From contig JAQUXE010000002.1 of the NCBI GenBank assembly GCA_028692555.1, forward strand, positions 1 through 64,000: 64,000 bases of DNA, written 5' to 3'. The notes beneath the pieces were generated by a model. The model did not search any database and was not told the DNA's origin. It saw only the letters and a program-made list of their open reading frames with translations. The stretch is from Minisyncoccota bacterium. GTDB taxonomy: Bacteria; Patescibacteriota; Minisyncoccia; Minisyncoccales; Minisyncoccaceae. Shown in pieces: positions 6,111-54,015 of the stretch; positions within the stretch are counted from its first letter, which is position 1, and every line of letters begins with the position of its first letter. The translations under genes and the position numbers were made by a program.

Positions 6111-6890
6111 ATGTCAAGAAACTTTTCCACACCAAAAAAAGAAGATGTTTTCCTTAAAAAAGGCCTTGGTCAAAACCTTTTGACTGATAAAAACATAATT
6201 AATAAAATAATTAATAACATTGATATTAATAAAGATGATGTTGTTTTAGAAATTGGTCCAGGACTAGGAGCAATCACTATTGAATTATCTAAAAAAGCTA
6301 AAAAAGTAATTTGCGTTGAAAAAGATAAGGAGATGATTGAGAAACTAAAAGAGAAAGTAGGGGACAATGTAGAAATAATTAATGCAGATGCTCTTGAATT
6401 CATCAAAGACATTGATCTTAAAGAATACAAGGTTGTTGCAAACATTCCATACTATATTACTTCTTCAATAATTAAGGGCCTACTAGAAAGCACCAATCAG
6501 CCAAGCGATATTTATTTAATGATACAAAAAGAAGTAGGGCGCAGAATATGCTCTAAGCCAGGAGATATGTCTGTCTTAGCAATATCAGTCCAATATTATG
6601 CAACTCCTAAAGTTCTCTTTAATGTTTCTAAGAATTCCTTTTATCCCGCCCCCAAGGTAGATAGCGCTTTTATCCAAATTAAGCCCAATGGGATAAAAAA
6701 GAATGATGACTTTTTTAAATTAATTAAAAAAGGCTTTTTTCATCCAAGAAAAAAGCTTGCTAATAATTTAGAAGCTAGAGAGTTCGTAGAAAATTGGCTC
6801 AAAGAGAATAAATTGAAAGCAGGGGAGAGAGCAGAAAACTTAAGTGTTGAACAATGGAAAGACCTTTTTAATCTAATGAAAAGACCATAA
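6111..6890 (+). CDS. rsmA: 16S rRNA (adenine1518/1519-N6)-dimethyltransferase
   Basis: 259 aa. KsgA N-terminus LGQNLLTD, SAM motif LEIGPGLGAIT, NIPY motif. Confidence 0.85.
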   Translation: MSRNFSTPKKEDVFLKKGLGQNLLTDKNIINKIINNIDINKDDVVLEIGPGLGAITIELSKKAKKVICVEKDKEMIEKLKEKVGDNVEIINADALEFIKDIDLKEYKVVANIPYYITSSIIKGLLESTNQPSDIYLMIQKEVGRRICSKPGDMSVLAISVQYYATPKVLFNVSKNSFYPAPKVDSAFIQIKPNGIKKNDDFFKLIKKGFFHPRKKLANNLEAREFVENWLKENKLKAGERAENLSVEQWKDLFNLMKRP

Positions 6891-8025
6891 TTTCCTTAGG
6901 TGAAAAAAAAGAATCCATTTTTCCATCAATCACCCTATAGAAAGGACCATATTTTATCATATTAATACAAGTAGTATTTTTTGAATCAATATATTGACAA
7001 GATTCTTCTGCCTCATCTTCACCATCAATTAATCTCCCTCTCAAGAGTATCCCTGTTCTTTTTGAAACACCAATGGACAAAATGTCTCCTTCAAACCCAC
7101 CATCTTCTGATTGACAATCTTCTTCCAACAACTCGCTGATTGACTTAAACTCATTAATATTAAAACTGCAAGAATACTCTTCTGGCAAAGGACAAGGATT
7201 CGGCTCTTCCCATTCATCATCGTGATCGTCTATTTCTCTGCAATATTTATCAACCTTAGGCTCGCAATTATAATTATTATATATTGTAATTTCACCCCCT
7301 GTTTTGCCTGCGAGGACAACTAGTGAAGCTAAAGTATCTTGACCTATTGGAGGGTCATTTTGGTCGCCCAAAGCATTGTCTAGATTGGAAATGCTTCCTG
7401 TAATGTATGAGCATTTTCCTCTGAATTCTGTTCCTGTAATAACCTTGCCCTCATCAGCTTCTCTATCTGCAAAAAGTATTGCTCCTAAAGTCATATTATC
7501 TGGTTGGTTAATTTTAATTGAAGAAGTTTTTCTGTAAAAGCTATCACTAATTAAACTGGCCTTTGAGATTTTAATATTTAGAGGATCTTCTTCTGTTTCA
7601 TAATTAACTTCGCTGTACAAAAAAATACCCTTTCCTTCAGGAATAACAATGTCTATCGGTTCATAGTCACTACCTATATCATCAATATTAACATTCATTA
7701 TTGCTGGGTTAATAGTATTGATTATAATATAAGATGTAAATAAAACAGCAAGGCCAGTAAAAACTGCTGCTATTTTTCTCTTTGCTGAATTAATAACTTT
7801 TGCATCACCATAAGCAGAAACCCACTCTAATCCAGCTATAATTAAAAGCACTACACCCAAGAAAGATCCTATCGCTGTTATTATATAAAAAAGATAGGTA
7901 ATAAACTGTGATGCTGTTGTATCAGGATCATTAATATTAATTCCGCCAATAATAGGATAATCAGCTAATATTATATTAGGAAAAATCAAGAATCCTATTA
8001 AAATTAAAAATATTATTTTCTTCAT
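6868..8025 (-). CDS. surface protein: VirB2/TrbC-pilin-like N-domain fused to Cys-containing ectodomain (paralog 1)
   Basis: Signal peptide, then two hydrophobic helices flanking loop EWVSAYGDAKVINSAKRKI and INTINP. C-terminal ~250 aa acidic region with paired Cys. Overlaps next gene by 1 nt. Confidence 0.55.
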   Translation of the reverse strand: MKKIIFLILIGFLIFPNIILADYPIIGGININDPDTTASQFITYLFYIITAIGSFLGVVLLIIAGLEWVSAYGDAKVINSAKRKIAAVFTGLAVLFTSYIIINTINPAIMNVNIDDIGSDYEPIDIVIPEGKGIFLYSEVNYETEEDPLNIKISKASLISDSFYRKTSSIKINQPDNMTLGAILFADREADEGKVITGTEFRGKCSYITGSISNLDNALGDQNDPPIGQDTLASLVVLAGKTGGEITIYNNYNCEPKVDKYCREIDDHDDEWEEPNPCPLPEEYSCSFNINEFKSISELLEEDCQSEDGGFEGDILSIGVSKRTGILLRGRLIDGEDEAEESCQYIDSKNTTCINMIKYGPFYRVIDGKMDSFFSPKEIMVFSLD

Positions 8026-9353
8026 CAGTCAGCAGAAATAATTATAAATGATTGCGGTTTTACTCCCCATGTTTCATAAACAGAAGTTCCACTAATATCA
8101 GCGTAACATGTTCCTCCCTCAAGTAACGAGGAGTCAAAATATTTACAATTCGTGCCTATGCCTGCCTCACCTTGCTTAGAAGTGCTTAATACTAGCCCCG
8201 CATTTCCTAAAATCTCAAAAGATAAAATTGCATCGCCTTCGTCCCAACCAGAACAATTATCAAGAATATTGATATGCCTTGTTGTTGAGCTAATATTAAC
8301 CCTACATTCTTTAATTTCTGTTGAACCAATTGTTGGCAAGGATATCGCCCCTGGTTGTTTTCTTCCACAATTTTTAGTTGTATAAAAAATAACTTGACCT
8401 CTGTCTATTGTAACTCCCGGAGTTGAAACTTCTTTTTTTACAACCAAAGAAGAAATTCTATTATTTCCTATACTCTCACTGTATTGCCACTGGTCCTTCG
8501 CACTTGAGTTTAAATTGTCTATTGACTCTCCAACTAGGGAACAAAATCCTTCATGGTTCGGATTTGCAAAAACAACTGCTCGGTATTTTTCCATTCCTCC
8601 TTGAATAATTTCTATTGACTGAGTTTTATTATTAAAATTAGAAGAAATTAAATTGGAAATACTAGTAGCGGTATAGATAGGGTAGGGAGAACTACCAAGA
8701 TTATAATTTACACTGTCATATAAATAAACTCCTTGATAGTGCCTTAAAAAATATATTGATTTAGCTCCTGAAATATCACCTGAAATATTACCAGAAACAT
8801 CCATTTTAAATGTTCTTCTTGCTCCTGTATAATTTTCACCCTCATAGACAAAAGCTTTTAAAATTGTTCCAGATGGAAAATTCCATTTGCTCTCATTTAT
8901 TGTTTTAACAATATCATATTCTATTTTTACTGTATTGCTATCTAAGCATCTTTGAAGCTCTGGCCCATCATCTTCTAACTTAACACCAACAATAATTCCA
9001 CTTTCGCATCGCAAATCATCTATTTGTATATTAGCAATTTGAGGATTAATGGTGTTAATAATTAAATAACTTCCCAAAAGAACTCCAACGCCCAATAGTG
9101 CATTTTTTATTTTTGTTTTTGCTCCATCAATTTTTCCTGGATTTCCATCAGAGGTCATCCACTCTACTCCCGCCATAACAACCATTGCTACGGCTATTAA
9201 TGCTCCCAAACCAACAAGAATTTGAAATATGTATGATATTATTTCTTCTGGCGTAGTTTCGTCGGTGATAATAAACTCTCCGATTTGAACATCGGCAAAA
9301 ACAGGCGTGGAGATTATTAGTAGTAGAAATATTAAAGATAGTATTTTTTTCAT
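8025..9353 (-). CDS. surface protein: VirB2/TrbC-pilin-like N-domain fused to Cys-containing ectodomain (paralog 2)
   Basis: Signal peptide; helix-loop-helix EWMTSDGNPGKIDGAKTKIKN...INTINP nearly identical in pattern to 6868-8025. Divergent C-terminal domain. Confidence 0.55.
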   Translation of the reverse strand: MKKILSLIFLLLIISTPVFADVQIGEFIITDETTPEEIISYIFQILVGLGALIAVAMVVMAGVEWMTSDGNPGKIDGAKTKIKNALLGVGVLLGSYLIINTINPQIANIQIDDLRCESGIIVGVKLEDDGPELQRCLDSNTVKIEYDIVKTINESKWNFPSGTILKAFVYEGENYTGARRTFKMDVSGNISGDISGAKSIYFLRHYQGVYLYDSVNYNLGSSPYPIYTATSISNLISSNFNNKTQSIEIIQGGMEKYRAVVFANPNHEGFCSLVGESIDNLNSSAKDQWQYSESIGNNRISSLVVKKEVSTPGVTIDRGQVIFYTTKNCGRKQPGAISLPTIGSTEIKECRVNISSTTRHINILDNCSGWDEGDAILSFEILGNAGLVLSTSKQGEAGIGTNCKYFDSSLLEGGTCYADISGTSVYETWGVKPQSFIIISAD

Positions 9354-9362
9354 ATTTATATA

Positions 9363-11783
9363 TTAATTGCAACAATAATAATTATCTGTATATTCCTTTG
9401 TTATTAATAAACATCCTGGATTAGAAGCCGTTCCTTCTCTTAGGGGATTATAGAAGCATTGTGATCTTTCATCTTCTGTTAATCTATCACTATTTTGAGG
9501 ATAGCAATTATTATATGGAGGATTAACATTGCCTTTTCCTGGGTAGGGGAACTCTGGGAGAATTAACACTCCAGGATCTGTAATTCCTTCCATGCAACTT
9601 ATCACTTCTATTACTTCTGTTGGGTTATCTTTGTATCCAGCACCATATCCTTTAACGCACCCTGTGAACTTTTTTCTTGAATAAGATAGTTTTTCTAAAA
9701 TATCAAACCTTTTTTCAACTTTAATGCTTAATTCAGGATCACACGATTTAAATTTTCCACCAGCAAGACCTGCCTTCTTGCATGGAGAGCAAACATAACC
9801 AATTACTCCTGAAAGGTTTCCTATATTGTAAAAAGGATGATTAATTTTCATGTCTGATAATTCTAAAAGCCGATTAGAATATTCTTTAAATTTTTGCAAA
9901 AGACCCATTTTGTTCATATTTTGAGACCTTATTTGATGCTCTGCCGAGTCATTAGTCGCCTCAAAACAATGTTTTATTTCTACCTCGCCATCTTCTTCTA
10001 ATATTCCTAAACTAAAATCATCTTCCCAATAATATATTTTATTAATAGCATCACAAAAATTTTCAATAGGACAAACTCCGAAACATGTACTAGGGACACA
10101 GGAATAACAGGAAAGAGTTGTACAACTATATGAACTACAATGACAATTTGATTGACATTTACCAAACCAAGGATTGCCCGACTTACATCTATTACATGCA
10201 CATCCCTCTTGAAGAGACGGAATTAATATCGCCTGATCTCTTATTGCTTTAGATTCATTAATGGTAAAATCTATTCTCCTTATAACTTCCTTGCCCCAAT
10301 CTTCTGCTTCATCAACTGTTTCACCAATTGGAATTACTCCACTATAAAATCCTTTTTCCATTTCTCCCTCAATAACAGAACATTTCTTTTCTCCTGTGGT
10401 TTTTTTTATTTTAGACATTAAAGCATTATAATCACTGCTAAAATAAAAGGTTGCCTCGTCTCCGTCATAAAAATATTCTCTTTGGTCGTCTGTAATTTTA
10501 CATGGCTCTACATCGACAGTCCCTGAAGAATTAAAATTTCTACAATATCTAGAAATATCATAATCTTTAAATGTTGTTTTTTCTATTTTATAATTTGTCG
10601 CTTCGCCTTGAAGCTTGTTAAACTCTGCTAAAGTAATTCTTTCCCCCCACGGCATTTTCATTTTTAACTTTGCTTCTGATAGATTGTTAAGATGCGTTTG
10701 ATAATAATCCCTAAAAAATTCTATTCTTTCGATTCCATCGTCTAATGTTAATAAAATTGGTGCTTCGGGAGCTGTATCCTTAATTAACCCTTGAGAAAAA
10801 CAAATTTCTCTTGGTTTGGTTCCTGCTATTAACCATTCAATTTCTTCGCTTTTACACTGTAGCTCTAATCTATTAGGACAAGGATCATACTTGTATTGAT
10901 TAAATTCTTCTATTGTTTCTACAATAGGGTTTATAATTAATCCGCCTTCGCTTGGCTGAGCATTCGGACATCCTTCTGCAGCTCCGCAACAATTATAACA
11001 ATAACTCCACCAGGAAGAATTTGAACAGGTTCTATAGCTAGTAGAGCAACTACAACCACCATCTTCAGAACAAGAACAGGTAGTACATGAGCCCGTATAA
11101 GAACCGTAAGAACCATGATCGCTAAGGAAGCTAGCGCCCTCATATCTTCCAGTATAGCATCTATTACATCCACATTGCTTCATTAGGTCATTTAATTCTT
11201 CTATTAGAGGATATAAGTGATGTTCAATTTTAGCTGCGTATGCATCAGTTAAAAGTTTTGTACAGTAAAATAAGTCCTTATTTAAAAGAACATCTTTTTC
11301 ATTTATTTTACCATCTTTATTTTGATCAACAACATTTCCGATGATAATATTTCCGGAAGCATCTCTAAGCCTTGTTTCGTATTGATAACAAGGAACATCA
11401 ATAGAAGAAACTCCAGCTAAAATCGCTTCTGTTATTGTGCCCAAGGGTATTTCTTCAAAGGTGTATGTATCTAACTCTTTAACTACCGGTGGCTTGGGCG
11501 TAATTACAGCGGGAGGAGTAATGCTAATTTCGCCAATGTTCAATTCTACATCTAATATATTAGGATTAATTGTGTATATAAGAACATATGAGAGTAGCAA
11601 CACTCCAAGACCTATTAATGTATTTTTTATTTTTTCTTTGGCTCTAGAAAAAGCAGAAGTATCTCCACGAGAATTCAAAAGATTAATTCCCTGAAAAACA
11701 ATCATAAAAACAGTAAGAGCAATCCCTCCCATTATAGCGATATTGAATATACTAACTACTATTTCTCCAAAATTTTGTTCCAT
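9363..11783 (-). CDS. large cysteine-rich surface protein with VirB2/TrbC-pilin-like N-domain and EF-hand/dockerin-type Ca loop (paralog 3)
   Basis: 806 aa. N-terminal two helices with loop NSRGDTSAFSRAKEKIKN...YTINPN; DQNKDGKINEKD at aa 153-164 fits the 12-residue EF-hand loop. Extreme Cys density with CxC/CC/CxxC clusters. Confidence 0.55.
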   Translation of the reverse strand: MEQNFGEIVVSIFNIAIMGGIALTVFMIVFQGINLLNSRGDTSAFSRAKEKIKNTLIGLGVLLLSYVLIYTINPNILDVELNIGEISITPPAVITPKPPVVKELDTYTFEEIPLGTITEAILAGVSSIDVPCYQYETRLRDASGNIIIGNVVDQNKDGKINEKDVLLNKDLFYCTKLLTDAYAAKIEHHLYPLIEELNDLMKQCGCNRCYTGRYEGASFLSDHGSYGSYTGSCTTCSCSEDGGCSCSTSYRTCSNSSWWSYCYNCCGAAEGCPNAQPSEGGLIINPIVETIEEFNQYKYDPCPNRLELQCKSEEIEWLIAGTKPREICFSQGLIKDTAPEAPILLTLDDGIERIEFFRDYYQTHLNNLSEAKLKMKMPWGERITLAEFNKLQGEATNYKIEKTTFKDYDISRYCRNFNSSGTVDVEPCKITDDQREYFYDGDEATFYFSSDYNALMSKIKKTTGEKKCSVIEGEMEKGFYSGVIPIGETVDEAEDWGKEVIRRIDFTINESKAIRDQAILIPSLQEGCACNRCKSGNPWFGKCQSNCHCSSYSCTTLSCYSCVPSTCFGVCPIENFCDAINKIYYWEDDFSLGILEEDGEVEIKHCFEATNDSAEHQIRSQNMNKMGLLQKFKEYSNRLLELSDMKINHPFYNIGNLSGVIGYVCSPCKKAGLAGGKFKSCDPELSIKVEKRFDILEKLSYSRKKFTGCVKGYGAGYKDNPTEVIEVISCMEGITDPGVLILPEFPYPGKGNVNPPYNNCYPQNSDRLTEDERSQCFYNPLREGTASNPGCLLITKEYTDNYYCCN

Positions 11784-11786
11784 ATA

Positions 11787-12116
11787 TTATTCTTCTAAAT
11801 TAAACAACACTGTCATTGTCCAAAAGAACCCTATTCCTCCTAACCATGGAGATGTTTCTCCGATTAAGGGGGTTAAAAATCTTAAATATTTATTCTTGAA
11901 AAGCTTTTTAATTTTGCCAAAGCTTTTTCTTCCTCTAAGAGATGGTGGCCTGTGTCCTCTGATTAACAACCAAGGAAAAAAGATAAACATTCCTGTAATA
12001 TCAAGTATGCCTAAATCATCTAATCCGAAAATAACTAATCCCAATCCGCACAAATCAAGAAATAGGGCAGTGGGAAGCATAAAAAAGGCCTCTGGTGTAA
12101 ACTTAATATTAAACAT
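11787..12116 (-). CDS. small hydrophobic membrane protein, first gene of the pilin-like operon
   Basis: 109 aa, three hydrophobic segments. Stop is 3 nt before the start of the 806-aa gene on the same strand. No recognisable motif. Confidence 0.35.
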   Translation of the reverse strand: MFNIKFTPEAFFMLPTALFLDLCGLGLVIFGLDDLGILDITGMFIFFPWLLIRGHRPPSLRGRKSFGKIKKLFKNKYLRFLTPLIGETSPWLGGIGFFWTMTVLFNLEE

Positions 12117-12538
12117 AATATAAGTAAATTATACTTTATTATTAGAAGAGAAGCAATAATGTGTACTAGTCCATAATTTTCAAACATGCTAGGGTGTATC
12201 GCATCTATCTGGACCTAGACAGGTTGAAGAAAAAAAGGATCCTGCTCAGCAGGTTCCAAAGGATTCCTCAGATCCATGGAGTGAATTTGAGGAAAGGCAA
12301 GAAAGGGCACGCGAAGCTGCATCTCGGGCGGCTTTTGGCCCAAAGCCATCGCTTCCTGACATTCCGGGAGTGGCTATTATAGGAGGATTCCTAATCATAG
12401 GGGGAATTATATTTCTGGCAAAATCGAAAGATGAAGAATTTTTGCCGAATATATAATGCCTCCTTTTTTTATTGAATAAAAGTTTACAAGAAACAATAGA
12501 TTAATTTTTATTTATTATTGCATTGTGGACAAATTGTT

Positions 12539-13483
12539 TTAGGAACACACATTTTGCACTTTTTTTAACGCCTCATTTGGAGTTAAACCATCTAGAGCAC
12601 AATGTTCTAAATTATTATATTTAATATTCCATACTCTCAATTCTTTTTTTAATTGTATTATGGTTTTAAAATTGTGTCTATCGTAAAACATTTCTTGATC
12701 AGTTCGATGAGATCTTTCTACCTTTCCATTCTGAGCAGGCTTACCGGGATCGATTAAATAGTGAATGATGTTTTTCTTTCCACATAGAATGTCAAATTCA
12801 TGAAGTCGAGGATTTAAAGGGTCATTAGACTTATTGTATCCTATGTATCTGTTTGTGAAACAACTTCCATTATCAGTTTTTATTGCTCTGATTCTAAAAG
12901 GAGCAATTTCAATTATTCTATTTAAAAACTTAATAGCACAATCATTTCCCATACCATCATATACTTCTAAGTGTCTCCACCTCGAAGCACAGTCAATAGC
13001 TGTAAATTGATAATATTTAAGCCCATTAATGCTTCCTGGTACATATTTAATGTCTATTTCTACTAATTCTCCTGGCTGAAGAAGATTTTTTATATACTTC
13101 CACTTTAACTTTCTAGTCCTGTATTTTCTAACCAATCCTTCCGTCTTAATTATTTTTCCAATTGTCCTTGTATTAATTATGATTCCTTTTTTCTTTAACT
13201 TAAAGTTAAGTTTTTTAGCACACAACTTGGATTCTTTTCTTAGTTTAATTATTTCCTCTTTAATATGAATAGGGGTTTCATTGGGTGCTGTTTTAGGCCT
13301 TCTGCTTCTATTTATTAATCCACCTAATCCATTTTTACGATATTTAGACAACCAGTATTTAATTGTTCTTTCACTAAAGGGAGATACAGAAACTAGATTT
13401 TTAATGCTAATATTTTTCTCTAATATGGGTTTTATCCACCTATATTTTTCTTCTTGTGTTGATTTTGGCATAGTTTTTGACAT
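12539..13483 (-). CDS. IS481-family-like DDE transposase (HTH + rve integrase core)
   Basis: 314 aa single ORF. N-terminal HTH; integrase-core DDE signatures (...QFTAIDCASR..., IKTDNGSCFTN, QNGKVERSHRT). Confidence 0.8.
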   Translation of the reverse strand: MSKTMPKSTQEEKYRWIKPILEKNISIKNLVSVSPFSERTIKYWLSKYRKNGLGGLINRSRRPKTAPNETPIHIKEEIIKLRKESKLCAKKLNFKLKKKGIIINTRTIGKIIKTEGLVRKYRTRKLKWKYIKNLLQPGELVEIDIKYVPGSINGLKYYQFTAIDCASRWRHLEVYDGMGNDCAIKFLNRIIEIAPFRIRAIKTDNGSCFTNRYIGYNKSNDPLNPRLHEFDILCGKKNIIHYLIDPGKPAQNGKVERSHRTDQEMFYDRHNFKTIIQLKKELRVWNIKYNNLEHCALDGLTPNEALKKVQNVCS

Positions 13484-13520
13484 ATGCCTCTAGATTATCA
13501 TAAAAGTGCAATATGTGTGT
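12547..13520 (-). mobile_element. IS element (IS481-like), boundaries approximate
   Basis: Imperfect terminal inverted repeats ACACACAT(T/A)TTGCACTTTT at 12547-12565 and reverse-complemented at 13502-13520 bracket the transposase. ORF stop lies ~6 nt outside the left repeat, so true ends may be slightly further out. Confidence 0.5.
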
Positions 13521-13583
13521 ACACATTACCAAATCCTATTGACATTTATTGTCTTTAATTTTATAATATTTGTGGTAATTAAA

Positions 13584-13766
13584 ATGTATAAAAAATTAGC
13601 TATTGGAGAGGCAGGAATCATCATATTCCTAATGGTATTGCTTACAGAAAAGGCCCCACTATCAGCATTTCTGTTGGTGGCTGGAGCAGTTGGAATACTG
13701 ATTATTGCAGTATTCATAGTAATTGGAGTTATGCACCTAGTAACATCGAAAAATGAAAGTTACTAG
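13584..13766 (+). CDS. small two-helix membrane protein upstream of VirB6-like gene
   Basis: Start chosen at internal Met (MYKKLAIGEAG...) of ORF 13506-13766. ~60 aa with two hydrophobic helices. Promoter-proximal to 13849-15774. Confidence 0.35.
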   Translation: MYKKLAIGEAGIIIFLMVLLTEKAPLSAFLLVAGAVGILIIAVFIVIGVMHLVTSKNESY

Positions 13767-13848
13767 GCGCATAACTCTTTTTTTTATTGATGAATAGATT
13801 GCTTTTTTCTTTACAATAAAAAATTTAGTAAGTATAATAAATTAAAAT

Positions 13849-15774
13849 ATGATTAAACTTAAAAGGATTTTATTTTTATTTATTTTTATAGCTATTGTTT
13901 TTTGTTTTTTCTTTCCAATTGAGATGACTGGCGCTATTGAGGAATCAGATGATATAATGTTCGATCCTGTCAACACAATAGCGACTGCTATAATTACAAC
14001 GATCGTAGACATAGCAATTAATACTTGTAGCGTGGTCTTAAAAATATCTTCGCAGATTTTGTCCTGGGCTATTGATGGAGGAGGAGTTGATCAGGCAGGA
14101 TCACAAAGCCCCGTTGTTACGGAGGGATGGGGAATAGTAAGAAATCTTGCAAACGCAGCCCTAATTATTGGACTTGTAATCATAGCTATTAATATTATAT
14201 TAGGAAAGGAAGAGGGGCAAGCAAAGAAAACTTTAGTTAACTTTGTAATCGTTGCTCTTCTTATAAACTTTACTCCATTAATTTGTGGCTTCTTTATTGA
14301 CGGGTCAAACATTATAGCCAACAGCTTTATCGGTCAAGGATTAGATCCATTAATGAACAACCAGCTAAATGATGCTGCTCAAGTGATTAGAGAAATGAAT
14401 ATTTTAGAAGCACTTCTTGGGATAGGATTTTTAGTTGTTTTTACAATCATATCTCTTTTTGTTTATCTTCTTTATGCCATTTTGTTTTTAGCCCGAACTG
14501 TAATTTTATGGATATTAATTATTGCTTCACCAATTGCTCTAGCAACAAAAGTATTTCCGAAATCAAATGCTGTCAGAAAATTCTTTCCTAGTATTTTGTA
14601 TTGGGACGATTGGTACGAAATGTTTCTCCAATGGGTAATAATTGTTATTCCTGCAGCTCTCTTTATTCACCTATCCAATATTGCAATAAGAGCAGCTGTT
14701 GTTACAGATTCACCAGGTGATTTCGATAATATTCTTGATTATTTATTAGTTCTTGGCTTTTCCTATTTTATCCCTTTAATTCTTCTAATTGCCGGATTCA
14801 TGATCACAATCTCTTCAGGAGGAAGTGTTGCCGCTCCTCTTGGAGCACTAGGAAAGAAAGCTTGGGCAGCTACCGCTGGAGCGGCTGGAGGATATGCATT
14901 AGGCAAAGCAAAATCTGGAGCAAAAGCAACTGGATCTTGGGTAAAGGAGGGAGCTGTGGGATCAGCAGCAGCTATAATAAAAAGAGAAAATCCTCTTAAT
15001 AAAGCTGCCCGAGATAGCGGAATGGCTAGCGTTGATAAAGTAAAATCAAGCATAGGTGGTGCAATGACAGGTGCAAAAGATTATTTACGTATTGGTGAAA
15101 GTAACACATGGGCGAAAAGATCGGCAGAAACAGAAAAACAATTAGCAGAAGGTATGGATAATTATTTTGACGGATCAAAAGAAGAAAATGTGGTAAAGTT
15201 TAACCTAGCACAACAACAGCTTGAAAAGTTAAGATTGAGTAAATCTTTATCACAGAAAGAACTTTCTAAAAGATATGAAAATCTATTTATTGCCGCTACG
15301 AATAATGGCGACATAGAAGACTCTGCTATTGAGAATTTCTTAAGTCAATCAAAAGGAAAAGGGGTGGACGTTGACTATGGAAAAATGCTAAGAGGAACAT
15401 CTGCTGTTGATATTATGAAAAAATACAAACCAAAAGCATTAGAAAGAGGATTTATTGCAGAAAAACTGGTTGACACTAAACAAGGAGAATATATTCTCAC
15501 TAACCCTAGAGCAACACAAGCTCATAGCAAGGCACTATTTGATGGAATAAAAAACTCAAAAAACACAGGAACACAAGCTGCTGGAGCAGCAAGCATTGGC
15601 GCATCCTCAAGTCCCGGAGATGCTACACAAAAAATAGACCAAGCAGAACAAATTTTGGCAGGAGAGCTCGACAGTCTTAATAGCAAGGCAACTTCATCCG
15701 GATTATCTGACGAAGAAGAAAAAAGAAGAGATGAAGTAAGTGATCAATTAAAGTCGCTAAAAGGAACACAATGA
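13849..15774 (+). CDS. VirB6/TrbL-like polytopic membrane protein with Gly/Ala/Ser-rich hydrophilic C-terminal tail
   Basis: 641 aa. Signal/TM N-terminus, ~6-7 further hydrophobic helices with Trp-rich loops in first 330 aa, then long low-complexity soluble tail. Architecture typical of VirB6/TrbL. Confidence 0.5.
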   Translation: MIKLKRILFLFIFIAIVFCFFFPIEMTGAIEESDDIMFDPVNTIATAIITTIVDIAINTCSVVLKISSQILSWAIDGGGVDQAGSQSPVVTEGWGIVRNLANAALIIGLVIIAINIILGKEEGQAKKTLVNFVIVALLINFTPLICGFFIDGSNIIANSFIGQGLDPLMNNQLNDAAQVIREMNILEALLGIGFLVVFTIISLFVYLLYAILFLARTVILWILIIASPIALATKVFPKSNAVRKFFPSILYWDDWYEMFLQWVIIVIPAALFIHLSNIAIRAAVVTDSPGDFDNILDYLLVLGFSYFIPLILLIAGFMITISSGGSVAAPLGALGKKAWAATAGAAGGYALGKAKSGAKATGSWVKEGAVGSAAAIIKRENPLNKAARDSGMASVDKVKSSIGGAMTGAKDYLRIGESNTWAKRSAETEKQLAEGMDNYFDGSKEENVVKFNLAQQQLEKLRLSKSLSQKELSKRYENLFIAATNNGDIEDSAIENFLSQSKGKGVDVDYGKMLRGTSAVDIMKKYKPKALERGFIAEKLVDTKQGEYILTNPRATQAHSKALFDGIKNSKNTGTQAAGAASIGASSSPGDATQKIDQAEQILAGELDSLNSKATSSGLSDEEEKRRDEVSDQLKSLKGTQ

Positions 15775-15778
15775 ATGT

Positions 15779-16216
15779 ATGAAAAAAATAAACGATAAAA
15801 TTATTGCCTTTTTAGGTGAAATCATATTAAAAAACAATCTAGAGAAAGATGTTATCGATAGCTCTTTTGACTATTCAGAAAGAACTCCTATTTTAGAAAA
15901 AACACTATCAATGATATTTAACGATGTCGTTACACAAAGAATGGAAAATGGAGAAAGGATTGCTCAGTTTCATCCTTTTGTAAAATTAAGAAACATTATT
16001 GATCGTTTAATTAATAATTTAATTAATTACGAAGATGTTCTTCCTTTATTAAAAGAAGAATTTGATTTTCCAAAAGAAAAAGCAAAGGAAATATCTTTAC
16101 TGATAGAAGGAAATAAAGAAATTAAGGAATTGATAGAAAAAGAAGATGATACTGTTTACGAAAAAACAGAAGAAAAGGTGAGTCCCAAAAGTATCGGCTA
16201 TGAGTTATTGAAATAA
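15779..16216 (+). CDS. hypothetical acidic protein
   Basis: 145 aa. Start 5 nt after VirB6-like stop. No motif recognised. Confidence 0.4.
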   Translation: MKKINDKIIAFLGEIILKNNLEKDVIDSSFDYSERTPILEKTLSMIFNDVVTQRMENGERIAQFHPFVKLRNIIDRLINNLINYEDVLPLLKEEFDFPKEKAKEISLLIEGNKEIKELIEKEDDTVYEKTEEKVSPKSIGYELLK

Positions 16217-16236
16217 AAAATGCAGGATAATGATTA

Positions 16237-17493
16237 TCATTTCCTGCTTCTGTTTTTATCTGCTTCGGCGATGAGTGCGTCAATTTCCTCGCGCGAATAG
16301 ATTTTCTTCTTTTCTTCTTTAGTAGAAGACGAGGAAGAGAGTGATGGTGATGTTTTTTGCTGCTCAATAATTTTATTAGCAGCAATGATCGCGCCAATCA
16401 TATTACTATAATCAGCACCGCCGCCTGTGCCAGAACCCTTGGGAAGCTTCATTTCGAAGTATGCCTTCCCATCAATCGCCATGTTCTTATTTACAAGATC
16501 CATAGCAACCTTGAACTGTTTCTTGTACTTCGTATCAAGAACTTCTGGGCTTGTTTCCAGCTCTTGCTGAAGTTTTTCAACCGTCTGTCCGGTTGCCGAA
16601 GCAACCATGCTAAGAGCACTTCCCATACGAGCAATTGCTTCCTTTTGGGCATCTGCTCTAGCTCTCACAAGAGTGGCTTCCATTTTCCTTTCCTCAACAA
16701 CCTTTTGTTGGGTTGCTTGCTCGTACTCAGCATTAGAGGGCACAACCTGAATAACACTCAGGTTAGTAATTTTAACACCATATCTTTCAATAATTTTTTC
16801 AACCCTTTTTGAGATATGATTTTCAAGACTACTAGAAAGTTCTCCTCTTATGATCTCCTCGTAAGAGTTTTTGCTGACGAAATCCCTGCTTGCTCCTTCA
16901 ATCCAAGAAGTCATGGCGGCGTTCCAATCCTTGATTTGAAACATTGCCTTGTATGGATTAAAGATCACTGCTTCAACCTCAATCCACATATTAATGGGGA
17001 CCTTTCCTTCAGTCTCCGCATCCTTAATTTCAACACCATAAACATATGGCATCAAAATTACATGTGCTAAAGGTTCTTCTCTTTGTTCTTTGGTTCCATT
17101 CTTAAACTTTACCCACCTCTGTTGGTAGGTATAAACCCTATAGAAAGGCCAGAGAATAGGGACCATCCCCATTATGTTGAAGGGGACTTTCTCTACTCCA
17201 TCAGCAACATCAAAGTTGCTGAGAAGCACCCTTCCTTGATACTTAATGTAGCATCCATGAAAGGAGTCTCCTTTCATAAGGATCTTTGCGTATCCTTCCT
17301 CGAGGAAGAATCCGAAAATCCCATGGGGTGCCCATACAAGATAAAGCACCAGAAAGACAGCTAGAATGAATACTCCCATTCCAATAAGTACTCCCCAAAT
17401 TATTCCCATTACAAAACAAATAATTGCTGAAAAAACAACAATCATTCCCCCTGTTGTAAGAGGGCTCTCATCAATCTTTTTTCTTACTTCCAT
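16237..17493 (-). CDS. SPFH/band-7 (flotillin/prohibitin-like) membrane protein
   Basis: 418 aa. N-terminal TM hairpin, SPFH-like core, long Ala/Glu/Gln coiled-coil and basic Ser-rich tail. Confidence 0.65.
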   Translation of the reverse strand: MEVRKKIDESPLTTGGMIVVFSAIICFVMGIIWGVLIGMGVFILAVFLVLYLVWAPHGIFGFFLEEGYAKILMKGDSFHGCYIKYQGRVLLSNFDVADGVEKVPFNIMGMVPILWPFYRVYTYQQRWVKFKNGTKEQREEPLAHVILMPYVYGVEIKDAETEGKVPINMWIEVEAVIFNPYKAMFQIKDWNAAMTSWIEGASRDFVSKNSYEEIIRGELSSSLENHISKRVEKIIERYGVKITNLSVIQVVPSNAEYEQATQQKVVEERKMEATLVRARADAQKEAIARMGSALSMVASATGQTVEKLQQELETSPEVLDTKYKKQFKVAMDLVNKNMAIDGKAYFEMKLPKGSGTGGGADYSNMIGAIIAANKIIEQQKTSPSLSSSSSTKEEKKKIYSREEIDALIAEADKNRSRK

Positions 17494-17619
17494 TTTAATT
17501 CCTCCTAATTGTTAAATAACCATAATTCCCTAAATAGGGATACATAAATTATAAAACATTATATTGTTTTTGTAAAGGGCAGTGTTGATTGAATAAAAAA
17601 ATGTGTTAAAATAAAGTAT

Positions 17620-18063
17620 ATGAAAAACACTGGTGATTCAAAAGATATTTTTTGGAAAGAATATGAAAAACTTCCCGACGCTATAAAAGAAGCTCTTTTT
17701 TCTGAAGAGAATTTTAAGATTGTTTCTGATATCTGTGAAGTAAATGGAGTTACTGGTGAAGATTCAAAATCTGAGTTAATGAAATATGTTGGAAGAACTT
17801 TAATGGGCAAGCTACCTATTAAAGATTTTTTTGTTACTCTTGAGTTAGAGATGGACATGGAAACAAATAAAGCAAAAACCATAAGTAGAGAAATAGACAG
17901 AAAAATATTCAGTGGCCTTAGGATAGCATTAAATAAAATATACTCTCTAAATATTGCAGAAAACAAGATTGTAAGCGATAATAAGAAGAACAAGGATGGA
18001 ATTGAAATTCCGGTACCCAGCAAAAGTGAATATAAGGATCCATATAAAGAACCATTAATATAA
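17620..18063 (+). CDS. hypothetical protein
   Basis: 147 aa. Immediately precedes the VirB3-like/VirB4 genes (2-nt gap). No motif. Confidence 0.4.
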   Translation: MKNTGDSKDIFWKEYEKLPDAIKEALFSEENFKIVSDICEVNGVTGEDSKSELMKYVGRTLMGKLPIKDFFVTLELEMDMETNKAKTISREIDRKIFSGLRIALNKIYSLNIAENKIVSDNKKNKDGIEIPVPSKSEYKDPYKEPLI

Positions 18064-18064
18064 T

Positions 18065-18484
18065 ATGCAATACAGAGTTCCTCAATTTATTGAACACCAG
18101 GCAAAAATATTAGGACCATTGAACGTAAAGCAAAGCATGACGATTGGAGTGGTTCTAGTTATTTGTTTCTTTCTTTATTTTGCCATCGGAGAAGAAAACT
18201 TTTTTCTCTTTATTCTTTTAGCGGGACTTCTTACTGGAATAGCACTAGCAATTTCTTTTTATAAAGTACAAGGGCAATCATTGCCAGTAGTAATGAAAAA
18301 TTGGACAAGTTTTAATATCTCTCCTAGGTTATTTCTTTGGAAAAGAAAGCGGTCACCGGTTTTTTTATCAACCGAAAGAGAAAGAAGAGCGATTACAATT
18401 GTTAAACAAGAAAAATCACCATTGAAAATGAGGGACGAAGGGAAGATAGAAGAACTAATTAAGAAAATTGATTTTGAAGAATAA
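18065..18484 (+). CDS. small 2-TM membrane protein, VirB3/TcpE/PrgI-like partner of VirB4
   Basis: 139 aa, two adjacent hydrophobic helices after a short N-terminus. Position directly upstream of VirB4 with overlapping stop/start (ATAATG) matches small partners of VirB4-type ATPases. Confidence 0.4.
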   Translation: MQYRVPQFIEHQAKILGPLNVKQSMTIGVVLVICFFLYFAIGEENFFLFILLAGLLTGIALAISFYKVQGQSLPVVMKNWTSFNISPRLFLWKRKRSPVFLSTERERRAITIVKQEKSPLKMRDEGKIEELIKKIDFEE

Positions 18485-19119
18485 TGGCAAAAGCACCATC
18501 ACAACAATTCATACCAATCCAGCAAATTAGAGAGGGGATAATGGTCCAGAAAGACAAATCCCTAAAGGGCGTTATTTTAGTTTCTTCTTTAAACTTCGGA
18601 CTAAAGTCAGAAGATGAACAAATGGCTATCATTTATCAATTTCAAAACTTCTTGAATTCTCTTGATTTCTCTTGTCAGATTGTTGTTAGTTCTAGAAAAG
18701 TAAATATTACAGGGTATATCGAAAAAATTGGAGAACTAGAAGGAAAGCAACAAAATCAATTATTAAAAATTCAAACAGCTGAATATCGTGCTTTTATCGA
18801 AGAGATTGTTTCTACAGGATCTATTATGACTAAGAAATTCTATATCGTTGTTCCATACTTCCCAATGCTTGAAATAGCTGGTGTTCCAGGACAAACATCT
18901 TCTGAAACAGGAATGGACTTAACAGAGAAGAAGTTTCAAACAGGAAAATATCAATTATGGCAAAGAATGGAGTATGTTTCATTGGGGATAAGAAGATGTG
19001 GTCTAAAATCAGTAAATTTAGGCTCTGAAGAGCTAATTGAATTGTTATGGTCACTTCATCACATTAATCAGGCAGAGCTAGGATATTATCCTGACTTGCC
19101 ACCTGAAATTATAATATAA
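18484..19119 (+). CDS. VirB4/TraE-type conjugation ATPase, N-terminal portion (split gene or frameshift)
   Basis: 211 aa beginning ...FIPIQQIREGIMVQKDKSLKGVILVSSLNFGLKSEDEQ..., the characteristic N-terminal domain of Gram-positive-type VirB4 homologs. Ends 1 nt before the next ORF in another frame. Confidence 0.55.
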   Translation: MAKAPSQQFIPIQQIREGIMVQKDKSLKGVILVSSLNFGLKSEDEQMAIIYQFQNFLNSLDFSCQIVVSSRKVNITGYIEKIGELEGKQQNQLLKIQTAEYRAFIEEIVSTGSIMTKKFYIVVPYFPMLEIAGVPGQTSSETGMDLTEKKFQTGKYQLWQRMEYVSLGIRRCGLKSVNLGSEELIELLWSLHHINQAELGYYPDLPPEIII

Positions 19120-19120
19120 T

Positions 19121-20899
19121 ATGGGATTATTCGGAAACAAAAGACAAAAGAAAGAAAAGATTATGGACAGAGAAATAACTTCTGCAATAGACATTATTTC
19201 TCCTGCCTCAATTGAGGTTCATCCAAATCACATTAAGCTAGAAGAGAAATTAGCAAAAACCTATTTTGTTTTTTCTTATCCAAGATATTTAACTACTGGA
19301 TGGCTTTCTCCAATTATTAATATGGATATTCCACTTGATATTTCTTTCTTTTTTCATCCAATTGAAACAGGTAGCATTTTGAAACAGCTAAGGAAAAGTG
19401 TAACAGAAGTTCAAGCAGAAATAATGGAAAGAGAAGAGAAAGGCCTTATTAGAGATCCGGCACTAGAGACAGCATATCAAGACCTTGAAGACTTAAGAGG
19501 ACAACTTCAAACAGCTCAAGAAAAAATGTTCAAGTTTGGATTATATATTACAGTTTATGCTGATGATATAAAAGAGCTTGAAAGGATAGAAACTATTTTA
19601 AGATCGACGCTTGAGTCTCGTTTAATTTATATCAAGCCAGCACTATACCAGCAAAAAGAAGGACTACTTTCAACTTTTCCCTATGGAACTGATTTATTAC
19701 AAATTCACAACACGTTAAACACAACTCCACTATCAAGTATTTTTCCCTTCATATCATTTGATCTTAGTTCAAACGAAGGAATACTTTATGGATTAAATAA
19801 ACATAACAGCTCACTAGTTCTATTTGATCGTTTTAGTATGGAAAATGCTAATATGGTAATTTTTGCTAAATCAGGTTCTGGTAAATCATATGCTGTAAAA
19901 TTAGAGATTCTTCGTTCTTTAATGATGGGAACAGAATGTATTATTTTAGACCCTGAAAATGAGTTTAAAACGCTAGCTGAATCAGTCGATGGATCATTCT
20001 TTAAAATATCTTTAAGTTCCGAAAGCCATGTTAATCCATTTGACTTGCCCGAGCCAAGGGAAGATGAGCGAGCAGAAGATGTTTTGCGTTCTAATATTAT
20101 TAATCTAGTTGGACTAATGAGAATCATGCTCGATGGATTAAGCGCCGAAGAAGATGCTATTATGGATCAAGCGTTATCTGAAACTTATGCTGCAAAAGAC
20201 ATTACCCCTAACTCTGACCCATCAACATGGGCAGAGAATGTTCCAATTATGTCAGACCTTGAATCAGTGCTAGAAACGATGGAAGGGGCCGATTCTTTAG
20301 TTGAAAGAATAAGAAAGTTCACAAGGGGAACATTTGCCTCCTTCTTTAATCAAAGATCAAATATATCAATGAATAATAATTTAGTTGTTTTCGGTATAAG
20401 GGACATGGAAGATGAGCTTCGTCCTATGGCGATGTTTATTATCATGCGTTACATCTGGAACACAGCAAGAGCGGTCCTCAAGAAAAGAATACTAGTTATA
20501 GATGAGGCATGGTGGATGATGAAAACTGACGATGGAGCATCTTTCTTGTTTGGAATATGTAAAAGAGCTAGAAAATATTGGTTAGGAGTAACAACTATCA
20601 CTCAAGATGTTTCTGATTTTATGCGATCTGATTATGGAAAACCAATCATCACCAACTCTTCTATACAATTACTATTAAAACAAAGTCCCGCAACAATAGA
20701 TTTAATCCAGCAAACATTTAATTTAACTGAGCAAGAAAAATTTCTTTTGCTTGAAACCCCAGTAGGGGAAGGAATCTTTTTCGCTGGACAGAAACATGTC
20801 TCCATTAGAATTATGGCATCATACACAGAAGATCAAATTATTACCACAAGCCCAGAAGAGATAGCAAAAATTAAACAAGCAAAAAACCTGCTTAGCTAG
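19121..20899 (+). CDS. VirB4/TraE-type conjugation ATPase, ATPase domain
   Basis: 592 aa. Walker A FAKSGSGKSY, VirB4 hallmark Walker B ILVIDEAWWMM, conserved C-terminal region. 211+592 aa matches full-length VirB4 (~800 aa). Confidence 0.8.
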   Translation: MGLFGNKRQKKEKIMDREITSAIDIISPASIEVHPNHIKLEEKLAKTYFVFSYPRYLTTGWLSPIINMDIPLDISFFFHPIETGSILKQLRKSVTEVQAEIMEREEKGLIRDPALETAYQDLEDLRGQLQTAQEKMFKFGLYITVYADDIKELERIETILRSTLESRLIYIKPALYQQKEGLLSTFPYGTDLLQIHNTLNTTPLSSIFPFISFDLSSNEGILYGLNKHNSSLVLFDRFSMENANMVIFAKSGSGKSYAVKLEILRSLMMGTECIILDPENEFKTLAESVDGSFFKISLSSESHVNPFDLPEPREDERAEDVLRSNIINLVGLMRIMLDGLSAEEDAIMDQALSETYAAKDITPNSDPSTWAENVPIMSDLESVLETMEGADSLVERIRKFTRGTFASFFNQRSNISMNNNLVVFGIRDMEDELRPMAMFIIMRYIWNTARAVLKKRILVIDEAWWMMKTDDGASFLFGICKRARKYWLGVTTITQDVSDFMRSDYGKPIITNSSIQLLLKQSPATIDLIQQTFNLTEQEKFLLLETPVGEGIFFAGQKHVSIRIMASYTEDQIITTSPEEIAKIKQAKNLLS

Positions 20900-21341
20900 C
20901 AGGTTTTACTATAATCTTTCTTTCTTCTCCTTCGCCAACACTTTCTGCTAAAACGTCGTTTCTTTCTTGTAGTTCTATGTGAACTATTCTTCTGTCAAAC
21001 GAAGACATTAAAGGAATCTCTCTTTCTCTTCCTGTCTTTAAAACCTCGTCAGCAACTCTCCAAGCAAGATCTTTTAAATAGCTTTCTTTGTTCTTTTTGT
21101 AATTATCAACATCTACACTAATATATGATTCTTCGCTTGTTTTCTTTTTAATTATTTTTCTCAAGAGTAGTTGTACATCTGCTAAAACAAGGCCCTGTCT
21201 TCCAATTAGTGTTTGAGCGTCATTTGTTGCAATGTCAATATTAATTAGATTATCTTTTTGTTCAACTTCAATACTAGCTTCAAAACTAGCCTTTTTAAAG
21301 AATTCATCTACTATGTTCTTAATTTCTTCTTTGTTAATCAT
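20892..21341 (-). CDS. jag: Jag/EloR-type KH + R3H RNA-binding protein
   Basis: 149 aa with KH-like and R3H-like C-terminal region. Last gene of the conserved rpmH-rnpA-yidC-jag cluster. Confidence 0.7.
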   Translation of the reverse strand: MINKEEIKNIVDEFFKKASFEASIEVEQKDNLINIDIATNDAQTLIGRQGLVLADVQLLLRKIIKKKTSEESYISVDVDNYKKNKESYLKDLAWRVADEVLKTGREREIPLMSSFDRRIVHIELQERNDVLAESVGEGEERKIIVKPAS

Positions 21342-22053: not shown

Positions 22054-22370
22054 CGTTTTAATGTTTTTTCAATATCACTCTCTATTTCATTATATGGAAC
22101 GCCTTTTATTGAAGATAATGCAATGATTATAATACTTAGCCCTCTCTTAAGGTCAGTCTTTTTTGCTACTTCTCTAAGCTGTCTTTTTATCTTATTTCTT
22201 TCTACGGCCTTTTTAGAAACTTTCTTGCTAACTATGAATCCTACTTTTGCATACCCTAGCCCATTACCTAAATACTTTACAATAATATTTCTTCCCTTTA
22301 TCGTTCTTCCATTCTCAAAAATAGCCTCAAACTCTTTCTTTTTCTTAAGCCGATTCTCTTTGGGCAACAT
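22050..22370 (-). CDS. rnpA: ribonuclease P protein component
   Basis: 106 aa basic protein. RnpA motif KVSKKAVERNKIKRQLRE. Follows rpmH. Confidence 0.8.
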   Translation of the reverse strand: MLPKENRLKKKKEFEAIFENGRTIKGRNIIVKYLGNGLGYAKVGFIVSKKVSKKAVERNKIKRQLREVAKKTDLKRGLSIIIIALSSIKGVPYNEIESDIEKTLKR

Positions 22371-22376
22371 AGAACA

Positions 22377-22511
22377 TTAAACAGAAAGCTTTGCTCTTCC
22401 TTTTCTTCTCCTGTTAGCTAGAATCTTCTGGCCACTTTTTGTGCTAGATCTTTCTAGAAAACCGTGAGTTGTTTGCCTCTTCTTCTTTTTGGGCTGATAG
22501 GTTTTGCTCAT
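22377..22511 (-). CDS. rpmH: 50S ribosomal protein L34
   Basis: Not in ORF track (44 aa). Reverse-complement translation gives MSKTYQPKKKKRQTTHGFLERSSTKSGQKILANRRRKGRAKLSV, a textbook L34. Confidence 0.85.
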   Translation of the reverse strand: MSKTYQPKKKKRQTTHGFLERSSTKSGQKILANRRRKGRAKLSV

Positions 22512-54011: not shown

Positions 54012-54015
54012 AAAT

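Follow-up and report, generated by a model that had tools for sequence, protein, structure and literature searches.

The 64-kb stretch analysed here (hereafter the window; positions 1 to 64,000 of contig JAQUXE010000002.1, assembly GCA_028692555.1) comes from a patescibacterium of the Paceibacteria/Minisyncoccales and carries, at about 6.9-20.9 kb, the genes of a type IV secretion system (T4SS). To characterise this locus, we mapped the open reading frames (ORFs) of the window and scanned them against Pfam and NCBIfam. A VirB6-family profile was also run against a single genome of each species, and the 80 loci obtained in this way were annotated with the window proteins; 46 of the 80 carry virB4. 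Our data suggest, with a good deal of confidence, that the locus is the chromosomal, origin-proximal T4SS already described across the ultra-small Patescibacteria and not a new kind of system. We hold its membership of the Patescibacteria-type T4SS family to be more secure still, and the pilus-adhesin mechanism discussed below to be less so. A first-pass annotation of the window, made from the DNA letters alone, had named most of the genes of the locus correctly. Its view of the locus as a chromosomal, possibly host-interaction apparatus of ultra-small episymbiotic bacteria agrees with the gene assignments, the lack of a relaxase and a coupling protein in the window, the vertical synteny and the Paceibacteria/Minisyncoccales affiliation of the organism. 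Its further statement that this is not a described canonical system does not hold, as the system was published between 2023 and 2025 (PMC10633639, PMC12102498, PMC12857230).

In the Saccharibacteria, Wang et al. (2023) found a homologous system (Ca. Southlakia epibionticum SEML1_0006-0019) that is essential, pilin array included, and has neither a relaxase nor a coupling protein (PMC10633639). Both the T4SS and the pilins of S. epibionticum are essential for epibiotic growth and ComEC is dispensable (PMC10633639, PMC12857230). Quinonero-Coronel et al. (2025) detected VirB4 in 2,417 of 3,035 Patescibacteria genomes, as a monophyletic clade nested in MPF-FATA. TrsD is its most frequent partner, PrgI/VirB3, VirB6 and VirB2-like pilin arrays of 2-11 genes accompany it, relaxases are almost absent, and in the Paceibacteria dnaA, dnaN, rnpA, rpmH and ksgA are enriched beside virB4 (PMC12102498). 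A 2025 FEMS review already lists the patescibacterial system as a T4SS type (PMC12857230). The present locus has the features by which the Patescibacteria-type T4SS was recognised (PMC12102498), namely an MPF-FATA VirB4 with a separate TrsD, PrgI/VirB3, VirB6 and a divergent VirB2-like pilin array, with no relaxase or coupling protein in the window. It is likewise chromosomal, lies next to dnaA, dnaN, rnpA, rpmH and ksgA, and has a peptidase gene close by.

The VirB4 ATPase (Table 1) aligned with positions 182-733 of the CD1110-family VirB4 model NF045971 in NCBIfam (1.9e-105, 353.8 bits against a cutoff of 325), and also with P-loop_TraG (5e-27) and the solved VirB4 C-domain of Thermoanaerobacter (PDB 4ag5, 3.3e-39). 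These matches place it in the VirB4 family, in the CD1110/MPF-FATA type. The 211-aa protein encoded upstream resembles the N-terminal part of VirB4. It matched positions 103-233 of VirB4_plasma, a Mycoplasma integrative and conjugative element (ICE) VirB4 model (4.9e-10), positions 2-117 of the CD1110 VirB4 model (1.9e-5) and TrsD (1.6e-4), and precomputed annotation assigns it to PF26593, TraC-like. The earlier call of a VirB4-type ATPase at 18484-20899 was thus right as to family and wrong as to a single gene: there are two ORFs in different frames, the first ending in TAA and the second starting one base later. This split is not damage, because the VirB4 homologues in more than 120 clusters (86-99% identity) are all of ~590 aa and a separate trsD of ~210 aa precedes virB4 in all 46 virB4-bearing loci. 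A frameshifted pseudogene was therefore rejected, and the arrangement matches the TrsD + VirB4 pair reported for the phylum (PMC12102498). Where the source was named, the 120 closest VirB4 clusters came from Paceibacterota, Minisyncoccales, Parcubacteria, Patescibacteria or mislabelled 'Pacearchaeota', the names serving as a proxy for clade placement.

The membrane components are more divergent. All 48 aligned orthologues of the protein with two transmembrane (TM) segments encoded ahead of trsD matched Pfam PrgI (best 1.7e-11), and 11 of the 48 also matched TcpE, which accords with its initial description as a VirB3/TcpE-like protein. For the polytopic protein initially called VirB6/TrbL-like, neither the protein itself nor 40 homologues gave a match in the Pfam copy used, and a PDB profile search with the family was empty. 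Precomputed annotation, however, gives PF19590 TrbL_3 for this protein and most of its homologues, and its predicted model found R388 VirB6 as the best match in two structure searches. The call is upheld on both counts. As all-helical structure matches are noisy, we accept the designation 'extended VirB6-like' with that caveat, as the weakest of the component assignments.

The four genes p147, prgI, trsD and virB4 form one packed plus-strand operon, with junctions of TAA-T-ATG, TAATG (the prgI stop overlapping the trsD start) and TAA-T-ATG. Gene junctions in the operons of the locus overlap or are 1-10 nt apart, and GC content is uniform across the locus, with no discontinuity. The locus was claimed to be origin-proximal, and this is justified because it runs directly into a contiguous jag-yidC-rnpA-rpmH-dnaA-dnaN block (rpmH at 22377-22511; dnaA 1.8 kb from the virB4 end) and because DnaA boxes lie in the dnaA-dnaN gap. 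Indeed, the only two perfect DnaA boxes of the window (24193 and 24256) fall in that gap, and one-mismatch boxes at 24101, 22650 and 22661 are close to the perfect pair, the boxes clustering around dnaA. A distance of 9 bp from jag had also been given; virB4 and jag are in fact convergent and overlap by 8 nt (20892-20899). A hairpin with a 10-bp stem at 20883-20907 covers the overlapping stops of these two genes and may be a bidirectional terminator.

A synteny comparison, suggested when the locus was first noticed, recovered the same gene order next to dnaA in the 46 virB4-bearing species loci. Closer genomes keep the order S15-PNPase-(h466)-DksA-like-M23-ksgA-[pil385-pil442-pil806-p109]-virB6-(p145)-SPFH-p147-prgI-trsD-virB4-jag-yidC-rnpA-dnaA-dnaN, and the p109-pilin block of more distant Paceibacteria sits instead in the interval from virB4 to jag. 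The same locus is present in Ca. Microsyncoccus archaeolyticus PMX.50, an archaeal parasite (our locus L026). Proteins identical to those of the window occur in several metagenome-assembled genomes, including GCA_028699955.1, GCA_028688425.1 and GCA_028708475.1, and source-named homologues are labelled Paceibacterota, Minisyncoccales or Parcubacteria. The synteny shows vertical inheritance of the locus across many species. From the median identities (Table 1) we conclude that the cytoplasmic motor is among the most constrained proteins of the region and that the envelope-exposed parts evolve fast. The T4SS locus is real and probably essential; that VirB4 is as conserved as DnaA may be taken to support a need for the T4SS in epibiotic growth here, if only indirectly. 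For a secretion ATPase of conjugative ancestry, a conservation equal to that of DnaA and far above that of YidC, KsgA, RnpA and Jag across the Paceibacteria (loci L013-L092) is unusual.

Table 1. Features of the T4SS locus and its surroundings. Positions are those of the window; median identity (%) is to the window protein across the 46 virB4-bearing loci.
Feature	Position	Strand	Length (aa)	Matches and features	Median identity (%)
Free-standing small VirB2-like pilin	171..578	+	135	PF18895 E 1.8e-10, 41.2 bits, above gathering score
LysM + M23 peptidoglycan endopeptidase	4936..6036	-		Peptidase_M23 7.5e-25; LysM 3.5e-21	41
KsgA					47.5
Pilin fusion	6868..8025	-	385	PF18895 E 1e-3, below cutoff; signal peptide, VirB2-like hairpin, C-terminal ectodomain	29-32 (pilin fusions)
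Pilin fusion	8025..9353	-	442	PF18895 E 8e-10; signal peptide, hairpin (35-102), predicted beta-gamma-crystallin-fold ectodomain(s) (~120-440)	29-32 (pilin fusions)
Pilin fusion	9363..11783	-	806	PF18895 E 2e-5, 25.0 bits against cutoff 26.6; without signal peptide; ~700-aa Cys-rich ectodomain	29-32 (pilin fusions)
p109, small membrane protein	11787..12116	-	109	First gene of pilin operon; no Pfam or NCBIfam match	38
IS481-family insertion sequence	12540..13525 (transposase ORF 12539-13483)	-		rve 2e-13, rve_3, HTH_32, LZ_Tnp_IS481
Extended VirB6/TrbL-like polytopic protein	13849..15774	+	641	~7-8 hydrophobic helices and a ~310-aa hydrophilic helical C-terminal tail	32
p145, small soluble acidic protein (145 aa)	15779..16216	+		Directly downstream of virB6; no Pfam or NCBIfam match
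Divergent SPFH/Band-7 membrane protein	16237..17493	-	418	Band_7 1.9e-12; N-terminal TM region	26
p147, soluble protein (147 aa)	17620..18063	+		First gene of p147-prgI-trsD-virB4 operon; no Pfam, NCBIfam or PDB match	36
PrgI/VirB3-like 2-TM protein	18065..18484	+		PF12666 PrgI E 2.8e-5, 25.0 bits against cutoff 27	41
TrsD-like protein (VirB4 N-terminal domain as separate polypeptide)	18484..19119	+	211	NCBIfam	56.5
VirB4 ATPase, short form	19121..20899	+	592	Walker A (GSGKS) and Walker B (VIDEAW) intact	71.5
jag, yidC, rnpA, rpmH (minus); dnaA, dnaN (plus)	20892..25444	-/+		Pfam; probable oriC region	Jag 48; YidC 47; RnpA 45; DnaA 71

We then turn to the pilin-like proteins. Three co-directional, tightly packed minus-strand genes open with a PF18895 T4SS_pilin domain. 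The operon had been described as one of four pilin-like genes, which is correct for these three and not for the fourth, p109, which has no pilin similarity. Of the three fusions only the 442-aa protein exceeds the Pfam gathering score. The three N-domains are nevertheless mutually homologous (BLAST 1e-11 to 1e-19), and hhalign joined the 806-aa N-domain family to the 385/442 N-domains with a probability of 99.9% (E 5e-31). By BLAST, the 385-aa and 442-aa proteins are alike in both the N-domain (1.7e-19) and the C-domain (5.5e-13). A further, free-standing pilin of 135 aa at the start of the window, absent from the first-pass annotation, has a signal-peptide-like helix and two hydrophobic helices. 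It brings the window total to four PF18895-domain proteins, two of them above the gathering score, and its pilin-S15-PNPase arrangement recurs in several related loci.

The hairpin itself looks like that of a conjugative pilin. In the AlphaFold2 (AF2) model of the 442-aa protein (pLDDT 80.7), helices span residues 2-18 (the signal helix), 35-66 and 72-102. Structural comparison of the N-domain with VirB2/TrbC pilins had been proposed as a check on the pilin call, and the predicted hairpin matched a conjugative pilin structure. Hydropathy and the AF2 model agree with the VirB2/TrbC pattern of a signal peptide followed by a two-helix hairpin, the 806-aa protein lacking the signal peptide. By size (~70-130 aa mature, hairpin only), the 385-, 442- and 806-aa proteins fall outside VirB2/TrbC and only the 135-aa protein fits; the latter is the best candidate for a conventional pilin subunit.

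The fused ectodomains are of more than one kind. Beta-gamma-crystallins have a double Greek key with a Y/FxxxxY/FxG signature and often an N/D-N/D-x-x-S/T-S Ca2+ site. The C-part of the 442-aa pilin shows Greek-key signatures at residues 170, 201 and 262 and Ca-site-type motifs at 279 (DNLNSS) and 297 (NNRISS), with S302 invariant and S301 nearly invariant across the family of this protein. The model suggests a beta-gamma-crystallin fold for this ectodomain, and homology suggests the same for that of the 385-aa protein. The 806-aa protein contains 44 Cys, and its C-part gave no Pfam or PDB sequence match, even in homologues of ~800-1300 aa. Its family has 1241 representatives among 1.84 billion proteins, of which 35 are at E <= 1e-30 and most are 800-1400 aa long. 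Scanned against Pfam, eight homologues of ~800-1300 aa from both large-pilin families yielded, apart from the pilin domain, a single lamin-tail domain. In a distant homologue of the large pilin fusions (L048:16174-18642), the hairpin is followed by such a domain (PF00932, 5e-10); different ectodomain types therefore occur on the same anchor. The related loci hold 150 ORFs with a pilin N-domain, 119 of them longer than 350 aa and 40 longer than 700 aa, small pilins being under-counted by a hidden Markov model built from the large type.

Of the claim that a minimal VirB2/3/4/6 set carrying giant adhesin-like pilins is novel, only the giant pilins were not found described; the rest of the set is published. 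Our literature searches found no description of a pilin hairpin fused to large ectodomains, of the crystallin fold or of p109, p147 and SPFH neighbours, and term searches in the main text of PMC12102498 gave no hit for them. A literature query for crystallin domains in connection with Patescibacteria pilins brought up nothing but irrelevant 'crystalline' hits. A report on cultured Minisyncoccaceae methanogen parasites (PMC10936435) places T4SS-pilin-domain proteins among the five most expressed signal-peptide proteins of unknown function, and its Table S2 has PF18895 genes of 1230 and 1458 bp, one of them called with a signal peptide. The ectodomain fusions, the crystallin fold and the recurring p109/p147/SPFH neighbours are modest extensions and not a new system.

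Taken together, we think it likely that this T4SS is fixed in the chromosome, is inherited vertically and derives from monoderm MPF-FATA conjugation machinery minus the DNA-processing half, and that it acts as a non-conjugative surface apparatus for host interaction. In such an apparatus, VirB4 hexamers, with their missing N-domain supplied by TrsD, would dock on PrgI/VirB3 and VirB6 at the cytoplasmic membrane. Powered by ATP hydrolysis, pilin hairpins would be lifted out of the membrane and piled up on VirB6 as a platform, giving a short pilus or stalk that would pass through wall opened by the neighbouring M23/LysM hydrolase. The 135-aa pilin would be the likeliest bulk subunit, and the three large fusions could be minor or tip subunits or membrane-anchored partners whose hairpins are inserted likewise. 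Their beta-gamma-crystallin and Cys-rich ectodomains may bind the host-cell surface. So built, the machine would keep the epibiont attached to its host and might offer a conduit for macromolecule import or export, without conjugation.

The 'pilins' of the locus are mostly large fusions, and their ectodomains, one of them a predicted beta-gamma-crystallin with Ca-site motifs, are plausible host-recognition modules. We tentatively put forward, as a possibility that may well prove wrong, that the T4SS pilin hairpin of the Paceibacteria has come to deliver and anchor large host-binding ectodomains that evolve fast (beta-gamma-crystallin, Cys-rich and, in one relative, lamin-tail). VirB4 and VirB6 would assemble these fusions into a pilus or onto its tip in a monoderm, and the fusions would determine to which bacterial or archaeal host the epibiont can attach. 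If true, this T4SS would be the first in which the pilins themselves bear adhesin domains, and the host range of uncultured Patescibacteria could be approached in concrete terms.

Several points weigh against a host-interaction pilus of this kind. We know of no pilins with 300-700-aa ectodomains that polymerise, and the large fusions are possibly mere anchored adhesins. A VirB8-like component was not identified at the locus, the M23 hydrolase is possibly a housekeeping division enzyme that merely adjoins it, and a coupling protein may be encoded elsewhere in the genome, our scan having covered the 64-kb window. In this strain an IS481 element separates the pilin operon from virB6 and could alter expression. 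More generally, a pilus or a substrate has been demonstrated for no patescibacterial T4SS, and a 2024 perspective calls the role of these systems "completely unknown" (PMC11665869).

An alternative that we regard as unlikely, yet as deserving real weight, is that the large 'pilins' are surface adhesins for which the VirB2-like hairpin is a mere anchor, with the VirB4/VirB6/PrgI core doing something separate, for instance exporting effectors. The lengths of the pilin-domain ORFs in the related loci, unlike any characterised VirB2, would suit this idea, as would the fact that, of the three window fusions, two score below the Pfam gathering threshold. Moreover, the array and p109 move as a block, upstream of virB6 or downstream of virB4, and therefore behave as a separable module. 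Even so, most related loci in which the array is detected keep it next to the core genes of the T4SS, which suggests functional coupling. In the F and T pilus structures both pilin termini face the outside of the pilus, and a C-terminal ectodomain on a pilus is therefore topologically possible. For S. epibionticum, the array that forms part of the T4SS cluster was found to be essential in its own right (PMC10633639).

We consider it improbable that the locus encodes a DNA- or nucleotide-import machine like H. pylori ComB or archaeal Ced, in which a pilus-like structure and VirB4 pull host DNA or other macromolecules inward. Import has been proposed as a hypothesis for these bacteria (PMC12102498, PMC11665869), the group to which the organism belongs lacking nucleotide biosynthesis, and VirB4 does match CedB (1.2e-12) and CedD (7e-5) weakly. 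The CedB score of 47.3 bits, however, is far under the cutoff of 700 and under the CD1110 match of 354 bits, and among the genes of the locus nothing was recognised as a DNA-binding or nuclease component. Transformation of S. epibionticum, furthermore, depends on ComEC and not on the T4SS (PMC10633639), with which nutritional import is still compatible. Import in any case overlaps with the surface apparatus favoured here, from which it differs only in cargo and direction.

That the locus is an ordinary ICE or its decaying remnant, the relaxase, coupling protein and integrase being outside the inspected region or recently lost, seems to us scarcely credible: the closest VirB4 homologues outside the Patescibacteria do belong to conjugative plasmids and ICEs of Firmicutes and Actinobacteria (27-35% identity), the best NCBIfam model is a conjugal-transfer ATPase family, VirB4 looks split and an rve-domain transposase sits inside the locus, but the split is the conserved state, the transposase belongs to an insertion sequence with its own inverted repeats and with no homologue detected in the loci of other species, GC content shows no break, VirB4 is as conserved as DnaA, and the same order is kept between housekeeping genes in 46 species-level genomes. 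Among the substantial ORFs scanned across the window there was no relaxase and no VirD4/TcpA-type coupling protein. Nor did the window contain a tyrosine or serine recombinase or flanking or long direct repeats, the only recombinase-type gene being the IS481 transposase. The first-pass annotation's statements that relaxase and coupling protein are missing and that this is not a conjugative element are thus confirmed for the window, the latter also by the shared chromosomal context in the 46 species. Its remark that no integrase is visible needs qualifying, since an rve-domain transposase is present; it is part of an insertion sequence, and no ICE integrase was seen.

Around the core, p109, p147, the SPFH protein and the M23/LysM enzyme recur and are candidates for missing parts, for example counterparts of VirB8 or VirB1 or a scaffold protein. 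In most related loci long enough to include it, the M23/LysM gene, which had not been noticed before, is found beside ksgA and adjoins the T4SS block. VirB1-like matches with M23/LysM domains have been reported, and VirB1 homologues are highly associated with virB4 only in the Paceibacteria (PMC12102498); the enzyme is a candidate VirB1-like wall-opening enzyme. Just outside M23-ksgA, a DksA/YteA-like zinc-finger protein (122 aa; 4578-4946, plus strand) recurs in many related loci, and a 466-aa protein (h466; 3087-4487, plus strand) does so less regularly. As for p109, it is the first gene of the pilin array in most loci where it is detected, including arrays relocated downstream of virB4. It was rejected both as a fourth pilin (hhalign probability 1.6% against the pilin N-domains) and as a VirB3 paralogue (0.5% against PrgI).

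Upstream of prgI, p147 is found in 41 of the 46 virB4-bearing loci, whereas p145 is confined to some closer relatives (8 of 46). The SPFH protein reported in the first-pass annotation is indeed a Band_7 protein. Of the 46 loci, 21 have its gene at the corresponding place between virB6 and p147, and the protein may be a membrane-scaffold partner of the machine. At 53433-54765 on the plus strand, an SLOG (LDcluster4) gene adjoins that of a further SPFH/Band-7 protein, this one canonical (249 aa, E 1.5e-39); a standard SPFH protein thus coexists in the genome with the divergent T4SS-linked one.

One gene left as hypothetical in the first-pass annotation (12539-13483) is the transposase, of the DDE type with an rve integrase-core domain, of an IS481-family element. 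The element has 19-nt terminal inverted repeats (12545-12563 and 13502-13520) and is not part of the T4SS; it occupies the promoter gap from which the pilin operon and virB6 diverge. That gap is much shorter in other species (155 bp in L013, the closest of them); none of their 80 loci yielded an IS481 homologue, and only near-identical strains were seen to carry the element. A perfect (12/12) sigma-70-like hexamer pair at 13539-13567 on the plus strand stands just outside the right end of IS481 and faces virB6. The gap of ~400 bp between p109 and the element (12120-12540) includes a locally GC-rich stretch (~12200-12400) that is missing from the equivalent gap of L013, and in related strains a 50-aa ORF is called there. 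Short-read assemblies with identical proteins (L001-L011) break at ~13400-13560 and ~17390-17460, which leaves virB6-p145-SPFH on its own contig of ~4 kb. The left break coincides with IS481 and the right one falls inside the SPFH 5' end or the gap before p147. As the window has no long repeats, neither repeats nor an invertible segment were accepted as the cause. Single-nucleotide polymorphisms occur in the intergenic stretch at the right break in L001, and the right-hand break probably reflects strain variation or heterogeneity.

Housekeeping functions fill the rest of the window (PNPase, S15, RuvABC, a penicillin-binding protein, TyrS, an F-ATPase operon, a Mur ligase and similar genes). 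No VirB11 was found in it; the T2SSE ATPase at 31216-32511, the sole further secretion ATPase of the window, was considered as the missing VirB11 and rejected, being of the PilB/GspE type (432 and 424 bits against 57 bits for VirB11). This type IV pilus ATPase (431 aa) overlaps a same-strand 350-aa protein without a family match (31216-33550, minus strand), a separate type IV pilus system. At 48644-50354 on the plus strand, an AAA_21 (AbiEii-like) ATPase is followed by a RloB-like protein, a pair of the anti-phage defence-island kind amid housekeeping genes.

To conclude, few machines are known to be essential to epibiotic life in this huge and largely uncultured bacterial radiation, and the patescibacterial T4SS is among them. 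The window supplies a complete and clean instance of it from the Paceibacteria, in a lineage that stands close to cultured Minisyncoccaceae parasites of archaea. Compared with the S. epibionticum system, the locus is arranged as in the Paceibacteria: virB6 and the pilin operon are divergent, and ksgA and M23 lie alongside. Published patescibacterial pilins are VirB2-like, with the small size of VirB2 noted, whereas here there are fusions of 385-806 aa; for the Saccharibacteria pilins this comparison is by description only. The conserved neighbours p109, p147 and SPFH go unmentioned in the published accounts (PMC10633639, PMC12102498), and the IS481 element in the intergenic region of this strain is another difference from the published systems. 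The locus also resembles the monoderm MPF-FATA systems (pGO1/pSK41 trs, pIP501 tra, pCF10 prg, CTn2/CD1110) in its VirB4 family, scored above cutoff, in its polytopic VirB6-like protein and in having no outer-membrane core complex. Its VirB3-like-TrsD-VirB4 order matches trsC-trsD-trsE of the pGO1 operon. A relaxase, a coupling protein, an oriT and a VirB8-like protein were, unlike in those systems, not found here; the locus possesses VirB2-like pilins, which Gram-positive conjugation systems do without, and it is chromosomal and vertically inherited where they are mobile. From the archaeal Ced system and conjugative pili (Aeropyrum pernix, PDB 8dfu) it is set apart by the low CedB score and by a CedD score of 21.6 bits (cutoff 600), and no CedA-like, other Ced or ComB component was recognised. 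Finally, the effector T4SSs of Bartonella and Anaplasma also keep divergent pilin genes side by side, a pattern read there as variation of the host-contact surface. Those pilins are small and belong to diderm MPF-T systems, whereas here the variation lies mainly in the large fused ectodomains of a monoderm.

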